Shown in pieces: positions 22,141-46,858 of a DNA stretch of 57,328 nt. The DNA is from Kiritimatiellia bacterium (GTDB lineage: Bacteria > Verrucomicrobiota > Kiritimatiellia > RFP12 > UBA3636): assembly GCA_017648065.1 (NCBI GenBank), contig JAGCJJ010000092.1, forward strand, positions 1 through 57,328, in the 5' to 3' direction. How positions within the stretch are numbered: position 1 is the stretch's first letter; every line of letters begins with the position of its first letter. Below the pieces are notes generated by a model. It searched no databases. It saw nothing but the letters and a program-made list of their open reading frames with translations, and was not told the origin of the DNA. Made by a program: the position numbers and the translations under genes.

Positions 22141-22291
22141 CCATTAATTTTGTTAGAATACACGCTAGAACTTATCTGAGCTTTCACACATAATCTTGTA
22201 TTGTGCAAGCGACGAATAAGAGTACACCAACTTATAGCTATTTGTACTTGTTTGGACAATTAGTAAGCCAAATTGTTTTTAGAAAAACATA

Positions 22292-22329
22292 GAGGATTCT
22301 CCATACCTTCTACAAGCACGAGAATCCTC
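22292..22329 (-). terminator. Intrinsic terminator of the 1252-aa gene
   Basis: 10-bp inverted repeat gaggattctc / gagaatcctc, followed on the minus strand by tatgtttttct. Confidence 0.7.
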
Positions 22330-22352: not shown

Positions 22353-25300
22353 TTATCGTACAATAATTATTAGTGCACTGCCAAGTACATCAATAACACC
22401 TGATGCAGCTTCACTTGAGTCAACAACAACACTATGCCCAGCATCATTGAGCTCTTTTGCCGTATATTGGCCAGCTCCAAGCTTAACCCCATCAAGCTCC
22501 ATAGAGCGAACCTTTAAGGTTCTTCCAGCTATGTCTAATGTACATTTTTTTGCCACATCTACATTCTCTAACTGCACATCCGCAACAATGATAACACGCC
22601 CCGCCTCTGAGATAGACAATGACGCAGCCTTTAGGCTTTCATCATTATTATACTTTGTTGATGGAATTGCTGTTTTAGCTGGTGTCGATGTTAGATTATT
22701 ATTGCGAACAAAAATTGTACCTGAGCCTTCTTTATCAGAGCCAGACTGAAGGTATACAGTTCCAGCAGATGCCAATGAATTTGTTTGTGCTCCTGTCGCA
22801 GCCTTAGAACCACCATAAGCCTTTATTGCTGCAGAAGTCAACCAATGCTCAGAAAATTCTGCATCCTCATCTGTTAGACGGACAGAAACACGCCCACCAC
22901 CTGTACAAGTTTTTATATTTCTTTCAGCAAGCCCTGATACAGATGTAACGCTTGACAAATTAGCACCACAATAAGAACCTATAACAGAAATACTACCTTC
23001 GCCTTGTAAGCTACCTGCCGTTATATTTATTGAGCCACCCGATCCAACTCCCTCATAAGAATTAGGGCTTCCATCTCCAGTTGATACTGCCGTACCATCC
23101 AATGTTAAGCATCCCTCAACAACTAACTTTACTACACCACCTCCAACAAACTGTGATGCAGTATCGTTATGTGCTCCAGGAACACCTGGTAGCAATGGAC
23201 TCAAAATTGAGCCATAAACAGAATTTGTTTGAATTGTCAACTGACCACCATGGCTATAAAAACCATTAAAACGAACATGATCTGTATTATCTGTTAAACC
23301 ACTATAATTTGCAAAAAGAGAACTATCTGCTCCAACAAGCATATTACCCTTTACAATTACATCACAAATACGTGGTTCAGCAACTGTTGATAATAAGCGC
23401 AAGCTACCTATAGCGGCACCATTTGTTACAGTAACATTACCCGTGAATGTATAAGGTTTAATTGCTTGGAAAAGCCATTTATTTTGAATAACTACATTTT
23501 CTTCATCAGAAGCAACAATACTTCCTCCATTATAGAGAATACCTGAGGTTGTTCCAGAACCACGAACAGAAGCAAATCCATTTGGCAATGTTAGCGTTGT
23601 TCCTTCTGGTATTCCCAAAATGCCATAGCCTGAAAATACTATTTCATCAAAGATCCAATTCTCTCCTGACGGAATTAGGGTTGTTCCACAAGGTGTTGGG
23701 AAATAGTGTGTATATACAGTCTTACGAGCAATATTCTTTACATACAATGAGCCATATCTTTGATTAGCTGTTTTAATCAAAATAGTTCCAGCACCTGAGC
23801 CGCCATTAGATGTTGCATCAGTTCCATTCGCTGTTATATTTGCTATTGGCAACCCTAACTCAGTAGCAGAAGTTAAAGAGATTGCAATACGACCTCCTGA
23901 ACCTGGCTTAGATGTGTGTGCTGTTTCTAATGCTGAAGCATTTATTTTTCCAGAACCTGTAACAGCAGCTGCTTCAATGTAGATAGAGCCACCCGCTCCA
24001 TGCGATTCTTTTAGCCATCCATTTGTTGTATTTTCACCAGTATCTGCTCGAACAATTCCATTTATCTCCACAGAGCCTTCCACATCTAAAAATATAGCCC
24101 CACCTCCAGCTGTGGTTTCATTACCAGCACCTAGAGAAATTGGCTTATATACATTTCCATAAACCTTTGAAACGCTTCCATAGCCACCACCATGAACTCC
24201 TGCTGAGCCTCCAGATGGGTATGAATTTTTCTGATATCCCTTTCTGCGGGCATCTAGCTTTGCAGCACTGCCCAATGAGAAGCTACCACCTACAGCAACA
24301 GAAAGGCGATACATTTCCGTATTAGTATTTTCATTGTGAGTCCAAGTTCCACCCTCAATAGAGACATCACCTGTTATATTGAAAGTTTCAAAGCCTTGCC
24401 CTGGATATGTTGTCATAAAAGTAACTATTCCGTTGTATCCACTTTTTTGCTCCCAGCCAGCAACTGTTTGTGGTGCTGCACTATCCCACTTACAGCTACT
24501 TGCTGTAAAATCAGGATCAAAAACAATTCTTTCTGAAGATGTTGGAACAACACCTTTTGACCAGTTTGATGCAGTGGATGCTAAATATGCACCATCTGTA
24601 GCAGTGACACCAATCCAGTAATTATAACCCATAGGCGTTGTAAAGTTTTTTACAATAACCTCTATTGCAGAATTATTAACAAAATAATTTCCCGAATCAA
24701 GTGAAACTGTCAAAGCTGTATCATTTTCATTTTCTGCTTCAACAATAGGTGAAACAAAAATAGTTACAGATGCTTCTCCAGCAGGGATAACAACAACTCC
24801 AGAATCATCTAAATAATTCACATCAGCTCGTGCTGTTCCATCCGCAAATGAATAATTTACCGTTAATGGGAAAGGATCTGCATTAGCACGAGAAACTGTT
24901 ATCATACCTTTTTCAAGTAGAGCTTCTGCGGCATCTTGCGTTTTAACAATAGAAAGAGCTCCACCATAAATTGTTCCCAATGAAACTTCAATATACTCAC
25001 CTAATGAATTTTCTGCATAGAGCGATACTCTATAGGTTTTATTATCCATTGGAGTAGTAAAGCTTGCAGAAACATTGCTATCCTTAGAGCAAGCACCGAT
25101 GGAATTTGTTACCGCTATTGTTCCATCATAGAGAATACATGATAGATTAGCATCAGCATTCGACAAAAATCCTTCTACAGTATATTCCTCCTCAGCAAAG
25201 GTTAGTGCTACATCTGAAAGCACAGGTTCAGTTCTTGCCTTATGGTGATATGCCTCTGCTTCATTTGTTGTAATAACAAATTCATCAAAGGAAACCCACT

Positions 25301-26111
25301 TATTATAAGTGCAATATTGACCAATCATTTGCAAATAACTAAGCGGTGTTGTTCCACTAACCAAACTTACATTTTCATAAACTGTTGTCCAGTCAAAGTA
25401 AATATCGTAGGAATCAACAGGAGCAGCATAAAAGGATAAAGTATCGGAGCCATTTTCACCAATATCTATTTTTGCAATCAGAACACAATTTAAAGTTTTA
25501 CTTGTGTCAATTTCAAACATATTTGTTGGTGTAGAGATTGCCCCAGTTGTGGGATCTCTAAAATATGCAGAAACATAAAATTTTCCACCATTATTTCGTA
25601 CACCCATATATAAACCATTTGCAATATTACCATTATCACTCACAGGGGAAGTAATTGCTTCAGTGCCTAGACCTGCCAACCAATAATTATTATTGCCTAA
25701 AAATTGTGTTGTAAGCAAATTTTTGTCAACTTGCATTAAAAAGCGAAAATATACAGAGCCAGAGCTTGGCCATTCTAGATCAAGTTTGCGCTGCTGTGCA
25801 CGATTCTTTCGTGCACTTGTTCCTACAGCTCCATTTACCATTACTGCACGCAAATCCTCTGTACCTGTAATTGAATCAACACCAGCCCAAGAACTAAGCA
25901 ATTCCAAACTTGGCTCCTGTGCAATAAATACACCAGTTCCAGAATTCCATCCAGCAGTTGTATCTAATCCTATTGATTTAACAGCTCCTTTTTTGTTATT
26001 AATGGATTTATTTAAATCGTAATCACTGGAGCTAAAACCCTCATACATTAGAATCTCGCCAGACAATATGCTAGATATCGATAAAACAAACAATAAAAAT
26101 ATTTTTTTCAT
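22353..26111 (-). CDS. Large secreted multidomain protein (Calx-beta-like domain plus duplicated Gly-rich beta-strand modules)
   Basis: Sec signal peptide; Calx-beta-like segment (PLTVNYSFADGTARADVNY...VVIPAGEASVTI); ASNWS..VP motif; repeated GGGAI.L / GAGGSI.I / GSGGRI modules; ends GSALIIIVR. Confidence 0.8.
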   Translation of the reverse strand: MKKIFLLFVLSISSILSGEILMYEGFSSSDYDLNKSINNKKGAVKSIGLDTTAGWNSGTGVFIAQEPSLELLSSWAGVDSITGTEDLRAVMVNGAVGTSARKNRAQQRKLDLEWPSSGSVYFRFLMQVDKNLLTTQFLGNNNYWLAGLGTEAITSPVSDNGNIANGLYMGVRNNGGKFYVSAYFRDPTTGAISTPTNMFEIDTSKTLNCVLIAKIDIGENGSDTLSFYAAPVDSYDIYFDWTTVYENVSLVSGTTPLSYLQMIGQYCTYNKWVSFDEFVITTNEAEAYHHKARTEPVLSDVALTFAEEEYTVEGFLSNADANLSCILYDGTIAVTNSIGACSKDSNVSASFTTPMDNKTYRVSLYAENSLGEYIEVSLGTIYGGALSIVKTQDAAEALLEKGMITVSRANADPFPLTVNYSFADGTARADVNYLDDSGVVVIPAGEASVTIFVSPIVEAENENDTALTVSLDSGNYFVNNSAIEVIVKNFTTPMGYNYWIGVTATDGAYLASTASNWSKGVVPTSSERIVFDPDFTASSCKWDSAAPQTVAGWEQKSGYNGIVTFMTTYPGQGFETFNITGDVSIEGGTWTHNENTNTEMYRLSVAVGGSFSLGSAAKLDARRKGYQKNSYPSGGSAGVHGGGYGSVSKVYGNVYKPISLGAGNETTAGGGAIFLDVEGSVEINGIVRADTGENTTNGWLKESHGAGGSIYIEAAAVTGSGKINASALETAHTSKPGSGGRIAISLTSATELGLPIANITANGTDATSNGGSGAGTILIKTANQRYGSLYVKNIARKTVYTHYFPTPCGTTLIPSGENWIFDEIVFSGYGILGIPEGTTLTLPNGFASVRGSGTTSGILYNGGSIVASDEENVVIQNKWLFQAIKPYTFTGNVTVTNGAAIGSLRLLSTVAEPRICDVIVKGNMLVGADSSLFANYSGLTDNTDHVRFNGFYSHGGQLTIQTNSVYGSILSPLLPGVPGAHNDTASQFVGGGVVKLVVEGCLTLDGTAVSTGDGSPNSYEGVGSGGSINITAGSLQGEGSISVIGSYCGANLSSVTSVSGLAERNIKTCTGGGRVSVRLTDEDAEFSEHWLTSAAIKAYGGSKAATGAQTNSLASAGTVYLQSGSDKEGSGTIFVRNNNLTSTPAKTAIPSTKYNNDESLKAASLSISEAGRVIIVADVQLENVDVAKKCTLDIAGRTLKVRSMELDGVKLGAGQYTAKELNDAGHSVVVDSSEAASGVIDVLGSALIIIVR

Positions 26112-39169: not shown

Positions 39170-39919
39170 TTATTTGAAAATTACAGTACCAAATTGTGAT
39201 TCATCAATAAATGGAGTCTTTGGATTTCCTGTAAAGTAAAGAGCAGAATCTCTGCGACCTCCATCATCATCGTCCTGAAGAGAAATATTAAATCCGATTT
39301 TCTCTGGGCGAGCTGTTTGACCCATAGCTTCCCACTTAATTAAATATTCATATTGAACAATACCCTGCTCTATATCTGTATGCTGCTTAACTTGCTTTGC
39401 AGCACCCTGCCACAATTTTCCGAAGGAATGTGGGTAGCCAGAAAAATCAGATGTATATGCACCATTGGCAACGATAGAAAATTCACCGCCAAACTTTAAA
39501 TCCTCACCATTGTTTGCACGAGAATTTGTTACGCGATTATAATTTCCATCAATAAAAAATTCACATGCATCATCATCCCATGCAGGAGCGGAATCCTGAC
39601 CTGGCTTTGCTGAGTCTGCAACAATTTTATCATCCTCAACTTTTACTGCAACTAACAGACCTTCGTCGTTATATGCTAATGCAAAAGAGAAAACAAGATC
39701 CTTTTCTCCTTCAAGTGGACGAGTTCCTGCATCAAGCACACCATTGTCTTTTGTAACTTTAATCCAATTAGCATTATCCCAATCGCACAAATCGCCATCG
39801 ACCTTTATTGAGTTATTTTTTTCGGCGCTACACTCTGTTAAATTGGAGATGACAGCACTAGCATTAGCAAAAAATGCCATTGAGAGAATAATTGCGCCTG
39901 TAAATAATTTTTTATTCAT
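39170..39919 (-). CDS. Secreted CBM9/DOMON-like sugar-binding protein
   Basis: Signal peptide; IKVDGDL.DW, L.VAVKVEDD, WDDDACEFFID, YEYLIKW, IGFNISLQDDD. Confidence 0.75.
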   Translation of the reverse strand: MNKKLFTGAIILSMAFFANASAVISNLTECSAEKNNSIKVDGDLCDWDNANWIKVTKDNGVLDAGTRPLEGEKDLVFSFALAYNDEGLLVAVKVEDDKIVADSAKPGQDSAPAWDDDACEFFIDGNYNRVTNSRANNGEDLKFGGEFSIVANGAYTSDFSGYPHSFGKLWQGAAKQVKQHTDIEQGIVQYEYLIKWEAMGQTARPEKIGFNISLQDDDDGGRRDSALYFTGNPKTPFIDESQFGTVIFK

Positions 39920-44518: not shown

Positions 44519-46858
44519 TTAGTTTTTATAATAAAGCACAATTTGCTTTCTATCCTTACGAACATCAAGCACCCAGCGACTTGCATCCATTGAAGGATCA
44601 AGCTTTATATTATCAATGCTTTTACATTCACCCTTCCATGCAAGTACAGGATATTGACCAGGCTTTGCACGCTCTGCATTTACCACCTTAATACATGCAC
44701 CTTCACCAAATGTTACGTTCTTATTAACAAGCAAAGGTTTTGGAGCAGAAGCTAAATCTAACTCAATTAAATTCTTTGCATTAACAGTCAAATTTTCAAT
44801 CAATGCATTACCACCGGCAAGCACAAGTGCATTACCAGTATTGTTATTGCAATTCTTCTCTGCTCCAATAATAATTGAAGCAACTCCTGTCAATTCACTA
44901 TATGGGCCAAGTATAAAGCGATTATCCTGTGCATGACGATTATTGCTCTGGCTATAGCCAATATAAATATTTTGATTATCCATCTTAAGAATAGTCTTTG
45001 CCTTTGATGTACCACGCATTTCAAAAACATTATCGCGAATACTTTGATTATCGCTATTATTATTCTTACCAACGATAATTGATTGCTCTTGACGCATCAT
45101 GCTTCCAGAAAGCAATCTAAATCTATTTGTAACAGCAGGACGTCCAACTCCATTACCAACAATAATCTGAGACTTTGATAGAACCCTTGCACCATCTTGA
45201 ACTACGATTGAATTTCCTTGAGCAGTTGAAGAGCCTGCATTTCCAACAATTGTGGTATCGCCTGTACTCTCCCATGCTGAGCCGGCACCACTGATAATAA
45301 GCTTATTATCTACTGCATGTGAAGTATTATGAGTGCGAGATGCATGACCGATTACTGCTCCCTTTGAGCGAAGCTTACCACCCTTGATTACACGAACAAC
45401 AACATTACTTACTGGACAATTTTCTGATTTATGAGCTGATGATGTTTGTCCTACATACATTCGTGGTGTAGAATTTAAAACTGCGCCATTAGAAACTGTA
45501 ATTGTGACATTTGTTGTAGGATTTCCCCAATCAGTATATCCGATTGTTAAATCATCTGCTGTTACATTGAGGCGGGTATCCTTGCCTGTAATAACTGCTG
45601 TTGAGCAGCTGCCTCTGAAACCAAACCATAATAGACGTGTTTCTAGCTTTGCTCCATCGCTCAAAATCAACTTAGAATGCTTAGAGCCGTCGGTTGGAAT
45701 TTGAAGCTTGTTAATGCCAATAATTTGAGAATTACCTAGCACCTCAATTGTATTGCTTCCTTTACTGAAAAGGTCACCCCAACCACCGCGAACACCAAGA
45801 AGCAAATCGTTATTATTTAAATTAATTGTTGTTGGAGAATCCTTTGTACCACCTGTCAAACGCAGAGTTACATTACTGCAACCAATCTGGCCAAGATTTC
45901 TATCTGCAACACCAACATACATTCCCTTGCAGCTTACCTCTGCGCCATTAGCAAATTCGAAAGTATATCTTTCTCCATCCCATGCATTAAATAAACGGAT
46001 GTGACCAACATTTGAAAAAATACCACCATCTAGCTTAAAGCCTTTTGAAAATAATGCAATTGGACGATTTTGAAAATCAACCATAGATGGCTCACCTGCA
46101 TCATTAACTCCAGAGACATCAAATTTATGACGAATAAAAAATATATCATTTTTATTTGTGCTGCAAACCTTTATCTGAGATCCCTTAACGATTGAGAATG
46201 AAGATGCATAGTTTGTTGAAAAGCTATTTTCATTTAGGATGCTGCCAGTAACATTTGAAAGAGTAACATCACCTTGGTTAAAAGAAAGCGACTTTAAATC
46301 AACAACACCATCAGCAATAGTTAAACTCTTAGGACCATGCTTATTGATACGGAATTGAGATCCATCAGCACCGCCTTTTAGAACAACATCACCATTGATT
46401 GTATCAATGGTTGTATCCCATCCAATACGAAGACGTTTCCCTTCCAAAGTTTGAGTATTTGAAGAGTGATTTTCAATTATGCCTTTAGAAAAAATATTTT
46501 CCAGAATGTAACCATCATCTTTATTTTCATTTACTGAGCCACCAATTGAAAGAATTGGTGCAGAAACAGTGAATGGTCCTGCATTTGTTGGGTAAAGAAA
46601 AGTACCTGCACGAAATTCAAAATCTTCGCCACCAAATCCAAAACGCTTTCCTTCTTCTGAATCAAACGAAATAGCTGATGAAAAAGCGAAAAAACTAGGA
46701 TTATTCTGTTCATGCCAATTTGTTTTGTCTGTCCATTTGGGAGATGTGCCACCACCTAACCAACGATGTATAATAACACCATCAGCATCTCCTTTTGCAA
46801 CTAAACTTGTCATCCAAGTAATGGACAAACCAAGTACACATAAAATAAAGCTTCTCAT
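44519..46858 (-). CDS. Secreted passenger-like beta-helix protein
   Basis: Signal peptide; W.GG....W....NW motif; K.G...LTI strand; about 10 rungs of the type '.VG......N...V..GA'. No C-terminal beta-barrel. Confidence 0.7.
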   Translation of the reverse strand: MRSFILCVLGLSITWMTSLVAKGDADGVIIHRWLGGGTSPKWTDKTNWHEQNNPSFFAFSSAISFDSEEGKRFGFGGEDFEFRAGTFLYPTNAGPFTVSAPILSIGGSVNENKDDGYILENIFSKGIIENHSSNTQTLEGKRLRIGWDTTIDTINGDVVLKGGADGSQFRINKHGPKSLTIADGVVDLKSLSFNQGDVTLSNVTGSILNENSFSTNYASSFSIVKGSQIKVCSTNKNDIFFIRHKFDVSGVNDAGEPSMVDFQNRPIALFSKGFKLDGGIFSNVGHIRLFNAWDGERYTFEFANGAEVSCKGMYVGVADRNLGQIGCSNVTLRLTGGTKDSPTTINLNNNDLLLGVRGGWGDLFSKGSNTIEVLGNSQIIGINKLQIPTDGSKHSKLILSDGAKLETRLLWFGFRGSCSTAVITGKDTRLNVTADDLTIGYTDWGNPTTNVTITVSNGAVLNSTPRMYVGQTSSAHKSENCPVSNVVVRVIKGGKLRSKGAVIGHASRTHNTSHAVDNKLIISGAGSAWESTGDTTIVGNAGSSTAQGNSIVVQDGARVLSKSQIIVGNGVGRPAVTNRFRLLSGSMMRQEQSIIVGKNNNSDNQSIRDNVFEMRGTSKAKTILKMDNQNIYIGYSQSNNRHAQDNRFILGPYSELTGVASIIIGAEKNCNNNTGNALVLAGGNALIENLTVNAKNLIELDLASAPKPLLVNKNVTFGEGACIKVVNAERAKPGQYPVLAWKGECKSIDNIKLDPSMDASRWVLDVRKDRKQIVLYYKN

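Follow-up and report, generated by a model that had tools for sequence, protein, structure and literature searches.

A strictly C-terminal tail on large exported proteins of Kiritimatiellia looks like a previously undescribed address or docking label

Several envelope machines were found by way of signals at the C terminus of exported proteins, namely sortase through LPXTG, exosortase through PEP-CTERM, and PorU and PorV through the C-terminal domain (CTD) of the type IX secretion system (T9SS). The beta-signal of outer membrane proteins (OMPs), which is read by BamA/BamD, has an aromatic residue at the C terminus, usually Phe, and Prc/Ctp enzymes bind peptides at the C terminus and trim short extensions from it, as in pre-D1 and FtsI. 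The hallmarks of PEP-CTERM are a near-invariant Pro-Glu-Pro motif, a transmembrane helix and a basic cluster (PMC1569441). We analyzed a stretch of 57,328 nucleotides (hereafter the window) from a Kiritimatiellia bacterium (assembly GCA_017648065.1, contig JAGCJJ010000092.1), in which the gene for a secreted protein of 1252 amino acids (aa), the target, ends in the codons for GSALIIIVR. This tail is a genuine, strictly C-terminal motif that is strongly enriched on signal-peptide proteins of the same genome, and it looks like a previously undescribed address or docking label. A full-text search of the literature returned no description of such a tail, and turned up only uses of the NCBI name 'choice-of-anchor'.

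The target gene (Table 1) encodes a protein that starts with MKKIFLLFVLSISSILSG... and ends in ...VIDVLGSALIIIVR (its last residues are also given as ...SGVIDVLGSALIIIVR), followed by TAA. Positions 22353-22382 hold this stop codon and the nine codons of GSALIIIVR (30 bases), as the initial annotation had claimed. The probable signal peptide of the target has no lipobox cysteine. Pfam places a Calx-beta domain at residues 414-474 with 25.6 bits, just under the cut-off of 27, and an NCBIfam scan of the target protein returned no match. A hairpin with a 16-bp stem, followed by a U-run, starts 23 nt past the stop (dG, the folding free energy, -25.7 kcal/mol; z-score -4.66; 0/200 shuffles as good). 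A simple rule-based terminator scan listed no terminator at the target's stop, because the hairpin exceeds its loop rule. The stop codons of 51 tail genes of the genome (profile score of at least 10 bits, see below) are TAA in 43 cases, TAG in 8 and TGA in none. Given these stops and the hairpin with its U-run, the target protein really ends at the tail, and on the same grounds we rejected an alternative genetic code or read-through. TGA closes 143 of the 1679 other open reading frames (ORFs).

We searched for the tail at the ends of 1730 non-overlapping ORFs, which are home-made calls covering 89.5% of the bases in the 2.06-Mb, 102-contig assembly. The strict motif G-x(1,2)-[ILVMF]{3,5}-[RK]-stop is found at 21 of the 1730 ends; 18 of these ORFs have a crudely predicted signal peptide and the other 3 are truncated at the 5' side by contig ends. 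The relaxed form [ILVMF]{3,}[RK]-stop occurs at 57 ends, compared to 3.6 expected from its internal frequency (1269 in 606,214 positions). It is carried by 43 of the 508 ORFs with a signal peptide and by 14 of the 1222 others (P-value 3e-13, Fisher test). The same enrichment is detectable when 5'-partial ORFs are removed (42/502 and 6/1147, respectively, P-value 1e-16). The initial annotation had named this comparison beforehand as one that could refute its proposal of a sorting signal; the frequency of the tail is about 8-17 times higher among signal-peptide ORFs, and the proposal was not refuted.

With an iterated tail profile, 12 residues long, 48 of the 1730 C termini score at least 12 bits, versus 7 of 592,374 internal windows, and 55 termini score at least 5 bits, versus 0.9 expected; the target scores 17.6 bits. 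The 48 strong tails have the consensus P-x-[GPSA]-T-phi-I-I-[IV]-[KR]-COOH (phi, hydrophobic residue), with P at position -9, [GPSA] at -7, T at -6 (31/48), [LTMI] at -5, I at -4 and at -3 (36/48 each), [IV] at -2 and K or R at -1 (47/48, with N in the remaining one). As for export, 38 of the 48 corresponding ORFs are signal-peptide positive, 8 lie at contig ends and lack their 5' end, and one of the 2 others begins with MKISKLFASVNAMMFTGISAAMA, an evident signal peptide that the crude rule missed. Among signal-peptide ORFs of at least 800 aa, 21 out of 47 bear the tail.

To describe the proteins that precede the tail, we compared 54 further carriers with Pfam. BspA-type leucine-rich repeats (LRRs; family LRR_5) were found in 19 of them, LamG/DUF2341 in 8, Gly_rich_2 in 3 and Calx-beta in 1 more, with PKD, PATR, fn3, F5/8-C and GH106 as singles and no family for 16. 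The best Pfam stretch extends into the last 9 residues in none of the 54, no model of Pfam (54 further carriers) or NCBIfam (35 carriers) covers the tail, and the carriers have no common residues at positions -20 to -8. The NCBIfam 'choice-of-anchor Q' domain, detected in L009 and L017 (two fragments), stops at ...IDIGAYE, 10 residues from the end. At NCBI, 'choice-of-anchor' denotes domains that are followed by one anchoring signal or another depending on the lineage; elsewhere this domain precedes such signals, and here the mini-tail follows it. The tail therefore does not depend on which protein family precedes it, and is modular in the window's own order (families f1 and f2).

About eight paralogues of tail carriers, mostly LRR_5 proteins, have the same hydrophobic run with F or Y replacing K/R. 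Examples are ATVILVF, ATLISIY, PSVISIF, PTAILVF and GLLIFIF, and the loci are G000:C18:2162-6538, C17:21789-22799, C37:32338-33045, C73:26463-30914 and C46:37918-39771. A second recurring C-terminal end, ...GVATVPATTATGFFKVEA[KR], was seen on 4 proteins (G000:C14:11140-12810, C32:404-3691, C44:26296-27903 and C24:2-1243), 3 with a signal peptide and 1 truncated at the 5' side. A further 3 secreted proteins have a looser FFK[VIL] end, and the regular expression matched 12 ORFs versus 2.3 expected.

The second outcome by which the initial annotation would have been refuted was a tail that is simply the last strand of a domain; two AlphaFold models put it outside the fold and so do not refute the proposal. 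The model of the target's last 349 aa (predicted local distance difference test, pLDDT, 87.8) is mostly beta with a solenoid-like body. Its final strand is VIDV (model residues 336-339), and the tail (model residues 341-349) is coil, with a block pLDDT of 68 versus 97 just before. A Foldseek search of this model against the PDB found nothing at E<=0.001; the weak rows were beta-helices, i.e. pectate lyase and autotransporter passengers. In the full-length model of a 441-aa LRR protein (L007), residues 430-441 (FPPPSTIILR) are again coil, with pLDDT 53/42 versus about 85 before. The tail is thus predicted to hang free of the fold in two unrelated carriers.

The initial annotation had grouped the end of the target with two other ends in the window, neither of which we count as a member. 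In the protein ending GTVIFK, CBM9_1 (PF06452) covers residues 47-248 of 249 and profile positions 9-182 of 185, and judging from this alignment GTVIFK is the last strand of the CBM9 domain. The end is also one residue shorter than the tag and has a tail profile score of -3.3. The other end, QIVLYYKN, does not fit the motif and is outside the 95 best-scoring termini of the 1730; its protein has only a weak match to a type V secretion system (T5SS)/PEP-CTERM-associated repeat (17.2 bits versus a cut-off of 23).

Table 1. Positions of the tail, its gene and the excluded look-alikes in the window
Feature	Position	Strand	Basis or remark
Target gene, encoding a secreted 1252-aa protein of beta-solenoid-like type (single weak Calx-beta match)	22353..26111	(-)	ORF; tail carrier
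Tail codons G-S-A-L-I-I-I-V-R, residues 1244-1252	22356..22382	(-)	TAA stop at 22353-22355
Probable Sec signal peptide MKKIFLLFVLSISSILSG of the target	26058..26111	(-)	Read from sequence and crude n-region/h-region rule
Hairpin and U-run, probable intrinsic terminator of the target gene	22281..22329	(-)	Folding analysis
CBM9 protein ending GTVIFK, not counted as tail member	39170..39919	(-)	Pfam CBM9_1
779-aa secreted protein ending QIVLYYKN, not a member	44519..46858	(-)	Sequence

Similar tails had been proposed on many Kiritimatiellia surface proteins, and homologues, related loci and a pattern scan of 401 genomes all bear this out. We searched for homologues with the C-terminal 403 aa of the target and examined the best 120 of 134 (28-94% identity). 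A simple regular expression for hydrophobic residues at -4 and -2 and R/K last matched 108 of these 120, although three of the matched ends (...SAGAELK) look accidental and two real-looking ends (...VIIYR) were missed. GC-rich relatives have an amphipathic form of the strand (GGGFSLIVR, GGGFKLSVR, GGGLHLHIR), and the core of the tail across the lineage is G-x-x-phi-x-phi-[RK], rarely with H, Q, F or Y last. Using a 16-row alignment to find related loci, we detected the tail on the matched gene in 16 loci from species-representative genomes with 38-68% GC. These are metagenome-assembled genomes titled Kiritimatiellia/Kiritimatiellae, 'uncultured Verrucomicrobia', 'Lentisphaeraceae/Lentisphaerales' or 'uncultured bacterium', and some isolate names suggest rumen, rectum or duodenum. 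In one of these loci (L064), a neighbouring DMGCYE protein also bears a tail. Homologues of one DIGCYE-type carrier (best 120 of 222) have 11-12 residues after DIGCYE in 120/120 cases and R/K last in 116/120.

To follow the tail across the phylum, we scanned 401 genomes with the DNA pattern D-[IVM]-G-x-[YF]-E followed by 11 codons and a stop codon or TGG, for which the reversed control gave 0-1 hits per genome. General DNA patterns for the tail were too noisy, with hits about equal to the reversed control; the clean ones were an AT-type pattern (11 versus 0) and the DIGCYE-anchored pattern, on which the status of 'tail-negative' therefore rests. The DIGCYE-anchored pattern is multi-copy only in the window's own class. 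It was found in 6/6 genomes of the window's own family (up to 25 copies), in G007 from another family of the same order (6 copies), in some genomes of family f5, and in 7/10 genomes of family f7, which belongs to another order (4-84 copies). Other classes gave single hits only, mostly ending in TGG. In 359 kb of G007 (GC 66%), a sample biased towards DIGCYE neighbourhoods, 9 ORFs bear the tail versus 0.8 expected. They belong to at least 3 families, namely 7 DxGCYE proteins, 1 of the Gly-rich type and 1 of another family. No tail was found on the 24 signal-peptide ORFs in a 134-kb sample of G014, from the tail-poor family f3. Two genomes of the same genus (g55) form a natural contrast in which to look for genes that accompany the tail, with 30 DIGCYE-type tail genes in G323 and 0 in G350 (2.7 Mb, 92% complete).

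When compared to described C-terminal signals, the tail shares several features with PEP-CTERM/exosortase (PF07589, TIGR02595, PF09721). Both are short C-terminal elements on many unrelated signal-peptide proteins per genome, present in many copies if at all, and on diverse, poorly annotated surface-type carriers (Haft et al. 2006, PMC1569441). PEP-CTERM is also typical of the Planctomycetes-Verrucomicrobia-Chlamydiae (PVC) group, and an exosortase is present here. The two nevertheless differ. The tail is 7 residues long versus about 25, seven genomes in which no exosortase was detected have DIGCYE-type tails, and the tail coexists with two canonical PEP-CTERM proteins in one genome. The target tail has no Pro-Glu-Pro motif, and PF07589 is unmatched on the target and on 54 other carriers. 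The tails also have no transmembrane helix, with only 5-6 consecutive hydrophobic residues before the terminal K/R, and no basic cluster, with a single K or R.

The tail resembles the OMP beta-signal in being a terminal amphipathic or hydrophobic strand of similar length with a Gly at a fixed distance upstream, presumably read by beta-augmentation, and a few tail paralogues end in F or Y. However, it ends in K/R in 47/48 cases, is restricted to a lineage, and sits on soluble solenoid and LRR proteins rather than on barrels. It is not the last strand of a transmembrane barrel, since the models show a solenoid and an LRR protein with a free-coil tail, and no barrel family was found on the carriers. 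Like the T9SS CTD, LPXTG, GlyGly-CTERM and PGF-CTERM, the tail is an address-label-like element after interchangeable passenger domains. T9SS domains, however, are folded modules of about 70-100 aa, and the tripartite signals combine a motif, a membrane helix and a basic tail, none of which is on the carriers. The claim that the tail is not PEP-CTERM, LPXTG, a T9SS CTD or an autotransporter barrel agrees with the absence of any such Pfam or NCBIfam match on the carriers. For T9SS, the models Por_Secre_tail and T9SS type A or B matched neither the target nor 54 other carriers (Pfam) nor 35 carriers (NCBIfam), and the T9SS machinery genes were not searched. No autotransporter barrel matched the carriers, which have only passenger-type repeats (PATR on L018, TIGR02601). 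An LPXTG-like motif and helix are absent from the carrier termini, and the sortase family was not searched in the genome. The tail also recalls C-terminal processing (pre-D1/CtpA, FtsI/Prc) as a short extension of constant length on exported proteins, with a Prc-type protease encoded here, but its unrelated carriers number in the dozens, and it shows no co-occurrence with the Prc marker.

The initial annotation had suggested looking for a protease or outer-membrane protein that co-occurs with the tail, and here the outcome was negative: exosortase, Prc and a giant GspK do not track it. Clustering by BLASTP of 221 neighbours (3 genes each side) of 55 tail genes revealed no partner family; recurrence was limited to generic ABC ATPases and additional LRR paralogues. 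The genome encodes one exosortase (PF09721, 151-152 bits; TIGR02602, 137.5 bits). Exosortase is present in all 14 tail-positive non-f7 genomes tested (G134, G293, G007, G329, G266, G311, G314, G362, G041, G068, G083, G209, G341 and G269), as well as in 4/5 and 19/21 tail-poor genomes of two panels, where all three misses are f7. It is over the cut-off in 0/10 genomes of family f7, 7 of which have 4-84 DIGCYE-type tails (completeness 92-96%). We therefore set exosortase aside as the reader of the tail: it does not discriminate, since all genomes tested outside f7 have it, with or without tails. The Prc-type tail-specific protease of the genome (835 aa, signal peptide, TSP_NTD, S41 and DUF3340) was rejected as well, because TSP_NTD is found in 0/10 f7 genomes and in all 34 tail-negative genomes scanned outside f7 and f12. 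The giant GspK-like pseudopilin L092 was rejected because it has matches also in 8/8 tail-negative f3 genomes. Family f7 (G003, G173, G182, G221, G272, G320, G323, G347, G350 and G353) is distinctive in this respect, with exosortase in 0/10 and TSP_NTD in 0/10 of its genomes; all other families tested have exosortase, and most of these families have Prc.

Two canonical PEP-CTERM proteins, L058 and L059, are encoded on another contig of the genome. They end in ...AVPEPASAMLALAGVAMLIRRRK (LIRRRK at the terminus) and fall narrowly short of the PF07589 cut-off of 20.7 bits, with 20.0 and 20.3 bits; the exosortase therefore has conventional clients. No other PEP-CTERM protein was found in the genome. 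L058 and L059 lie in G000:C84:88-2843 (L058, L059, L095 and L096) in two tandem pairs, each composed of a 200-232-aa protein of no Pfam family and then a small PEP-CTERM protein, and the 200-232-aa partners end in ...GNGTLTFK or ...EEISVTFTK. Small PEP-CTERM proteins as adaptors of the tail were set aside, as there are tail-bearing f7 genomes without exosortase.

We also looked for PDZ proteins and for outer membrane components. A scan of the genome with PDZ_2 and PDZ_6 found only RseP, with 2 PDZ domains, and no GspC-like PDZ protein. This sole match, L094 (G000:C26:13000-14532), is an RseP-type M50 site-2 protease. No PDZ protease of the DegP/HtrA type was detected with the two models in the 88%-complete assembly. 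The genome has one Omp85 protein (BamA) and three secretins, and its barrel-type proteins end in F (for example, ...GLGVGYSF and ...GTLGVNF). A complex prediction of BamA (residues 340-783) with the last 90 residues of the target gave no answer (score 0.00), which speaks neither for nor against binding. One secretin, of 990 aa (L099; G000:C51:5293-19298), lies with PilMNOP-like genes that adjoin two ExbD-like genes, an ExbB-like gene and the gene for a 1067-aa secreted protein.

Taken together, the tail is a modular, strictly C-terminal tag on about 50 Sec-exported, mostly large, repeat-built and adhesin-like proteins of this bacterium, and we consider it somewhat more probable than not that it is read after export by an envelope component. 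The putative role of the tag is probably sorting or docking. The tag consists of a flexible Gly/Pro/Ser hinge, a six-residue hydrophobic stretch prone to form a beta-strand, and a Lys/Arg cap with a free carboxylate. After Sec export, the free strand may be read in trans, by beta-strand augmentation on an envelope component, which would either pass the protein across the outer membrane or hold it on the cell surface. Such a tag would play the role of PEP-CTERM, LPXTG or T9SS domains, but without a membrane helix. More tentatively, and with clear doubt on our side, the heptad could be the address label of a new pathway for outer-membrane export or surface attachment in gut and rumen Kiritimatiellia. 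This label would be a helix-less single strand read by beta-augmentation, borne by up to 45% of large secreted proteins, and independent of exosortase, sortase, T9SS and autotransporter barrels.

Several points weigh against a sorting or docking tag. The spacing between the tail and the last domain is fixed within single families, as for a strand intrinsic to the domain. Nearly all carriers are beta-solenoid or repeat proteins, and a structural role, such as that of an end cap, is therefore conceivable. In 400 kb of an f7 genome (G221; 282 ORFs) there are only 3 tails, all on DxGCYE proteins. The tail may therefore be bound to a single family in f7, and modularity is shown only for the window's own order. 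There are also weaknesses of method. The class of 'tail-negative' genomes is defined by one family-specific DNA pattern and the 134-kb sample from a single genome, the completeness of the assembly is 88%, the gene set is home-made, and the 508 positives among the 1730 ORFs come from a crude home-made n-region/h-region rule, not from SignalP. Finally, no reader, protease or translocase was found among the candidates examined.

The main rival explanation is that the tail belongs to the solenoid or LRR fold of each carrier, as its final beta-strand or end cap, and is not an address label. We regard this as rather unlikely. In both AlphaFold models, of which one is full-length, the folds are well predicted and the tail next to them is coil (pLDDT 42-68). 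The heptad recurs behind unrelated folds that share no upstream residues, it lies past the point where a defined domain model (choice-of-anchor Q) stops, and a Pro/Gly hinge precedes it. On the other hand, repeat and solenoid proteins make up nearly all carriers, an end that looks similar can be an ordinary strand of its domain, as with GTVIFK of CBM9, the spacing to DIGCYE is fixed at 11-12 residues in 120/120 listed homologues, and all 3 tails in the G221 sample are on one family; the fixed spacing and the f7 result keep this explanation alive. Recognition of the tail by BamA or BamD, as a mimic of the OMP beta-signal, is considerably less probable. The core G-x-x-phi-x-phi resembles the beta-signal pattern, some eight paralogues do end in F or Y (PTAILVF, ATVILVF, ATLISIY), and the single Omp85 protein of the genome makes BamA the sole candidate of that family. 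However, 47/48 strong tails end in K or R and not in an aromatic residue, the carriers are solenoid and LRR proteins in a genome whose barrel-like proteins end in F, and BamA is universal and thus cannot explain why the tail is restricted to a lineage.

We attach slightly less weight still to a degenerate, shortened PEP-CTERM that the exosortase of the genome would continue to process. The presence of one exosortase here and in all 14 tail-positive non-f7 genomes tested would fit, as would the E-P found about 10 residues upstream of some tails. Against this, exosortase is equally present in tail-poor genomes and is not over the cut-off in seven tail-bearing f7 genomes, PF07589 is unmatched on 54 carriers of a genome that has the canonical L058 and L059, and all three hallmarks are missing (PMC1569441). 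To the same small degree, the tail could be a handle for a periplasmic protease of the Prc/Ctp type, either a cleaved pro-peptide or a degron, rather than a sorting signal. The genome does encode the 835-aa Prc-type protease with its signal peptide, and the extension after DIGCYE has a constant length. The domain TSP_NTD, however, is missing from all 10 f7 genomes, 7 of them with DIGCYE-type tails, and present in all 34 tail-negative genomes scanned outside f7 and f12, and Prc recognition is disfavoured when the C-terminal residue is charged. Least probable of all, in our estimate, is that the tails are aggregation-prone steric-zipper strands, which would tie surface proteins together or to a scaffold through an intermolecular beta-sheet with no dedicated enzyme. 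This idea, which is pure inference, draws on the runs of beta-branched hydrophobic residues with a charged 'gatekeeper' end, on the strand being free and unpaired in monomer models, and on no partner gene having been found. The tails point instead to specific recognition over generic stickiness, given the conserved G/T at -7 and -6 and the limited choice of last residue.

In this uncultured gut lineage, about 3% of the proteome bears the tag, and among the large secreted proteins of the adhesin-like kind the share is close to one half. Were it merely a structural cap, it would still be a useful marker of a large class of solenoid proteins. If its role is sorting or docking, one could define the surface proteome of the lineage from sequence alone, annotation pipelines would gain a new model, and the number of tails per genome would offer a handle for finding the reader by phylogenetic profiling.

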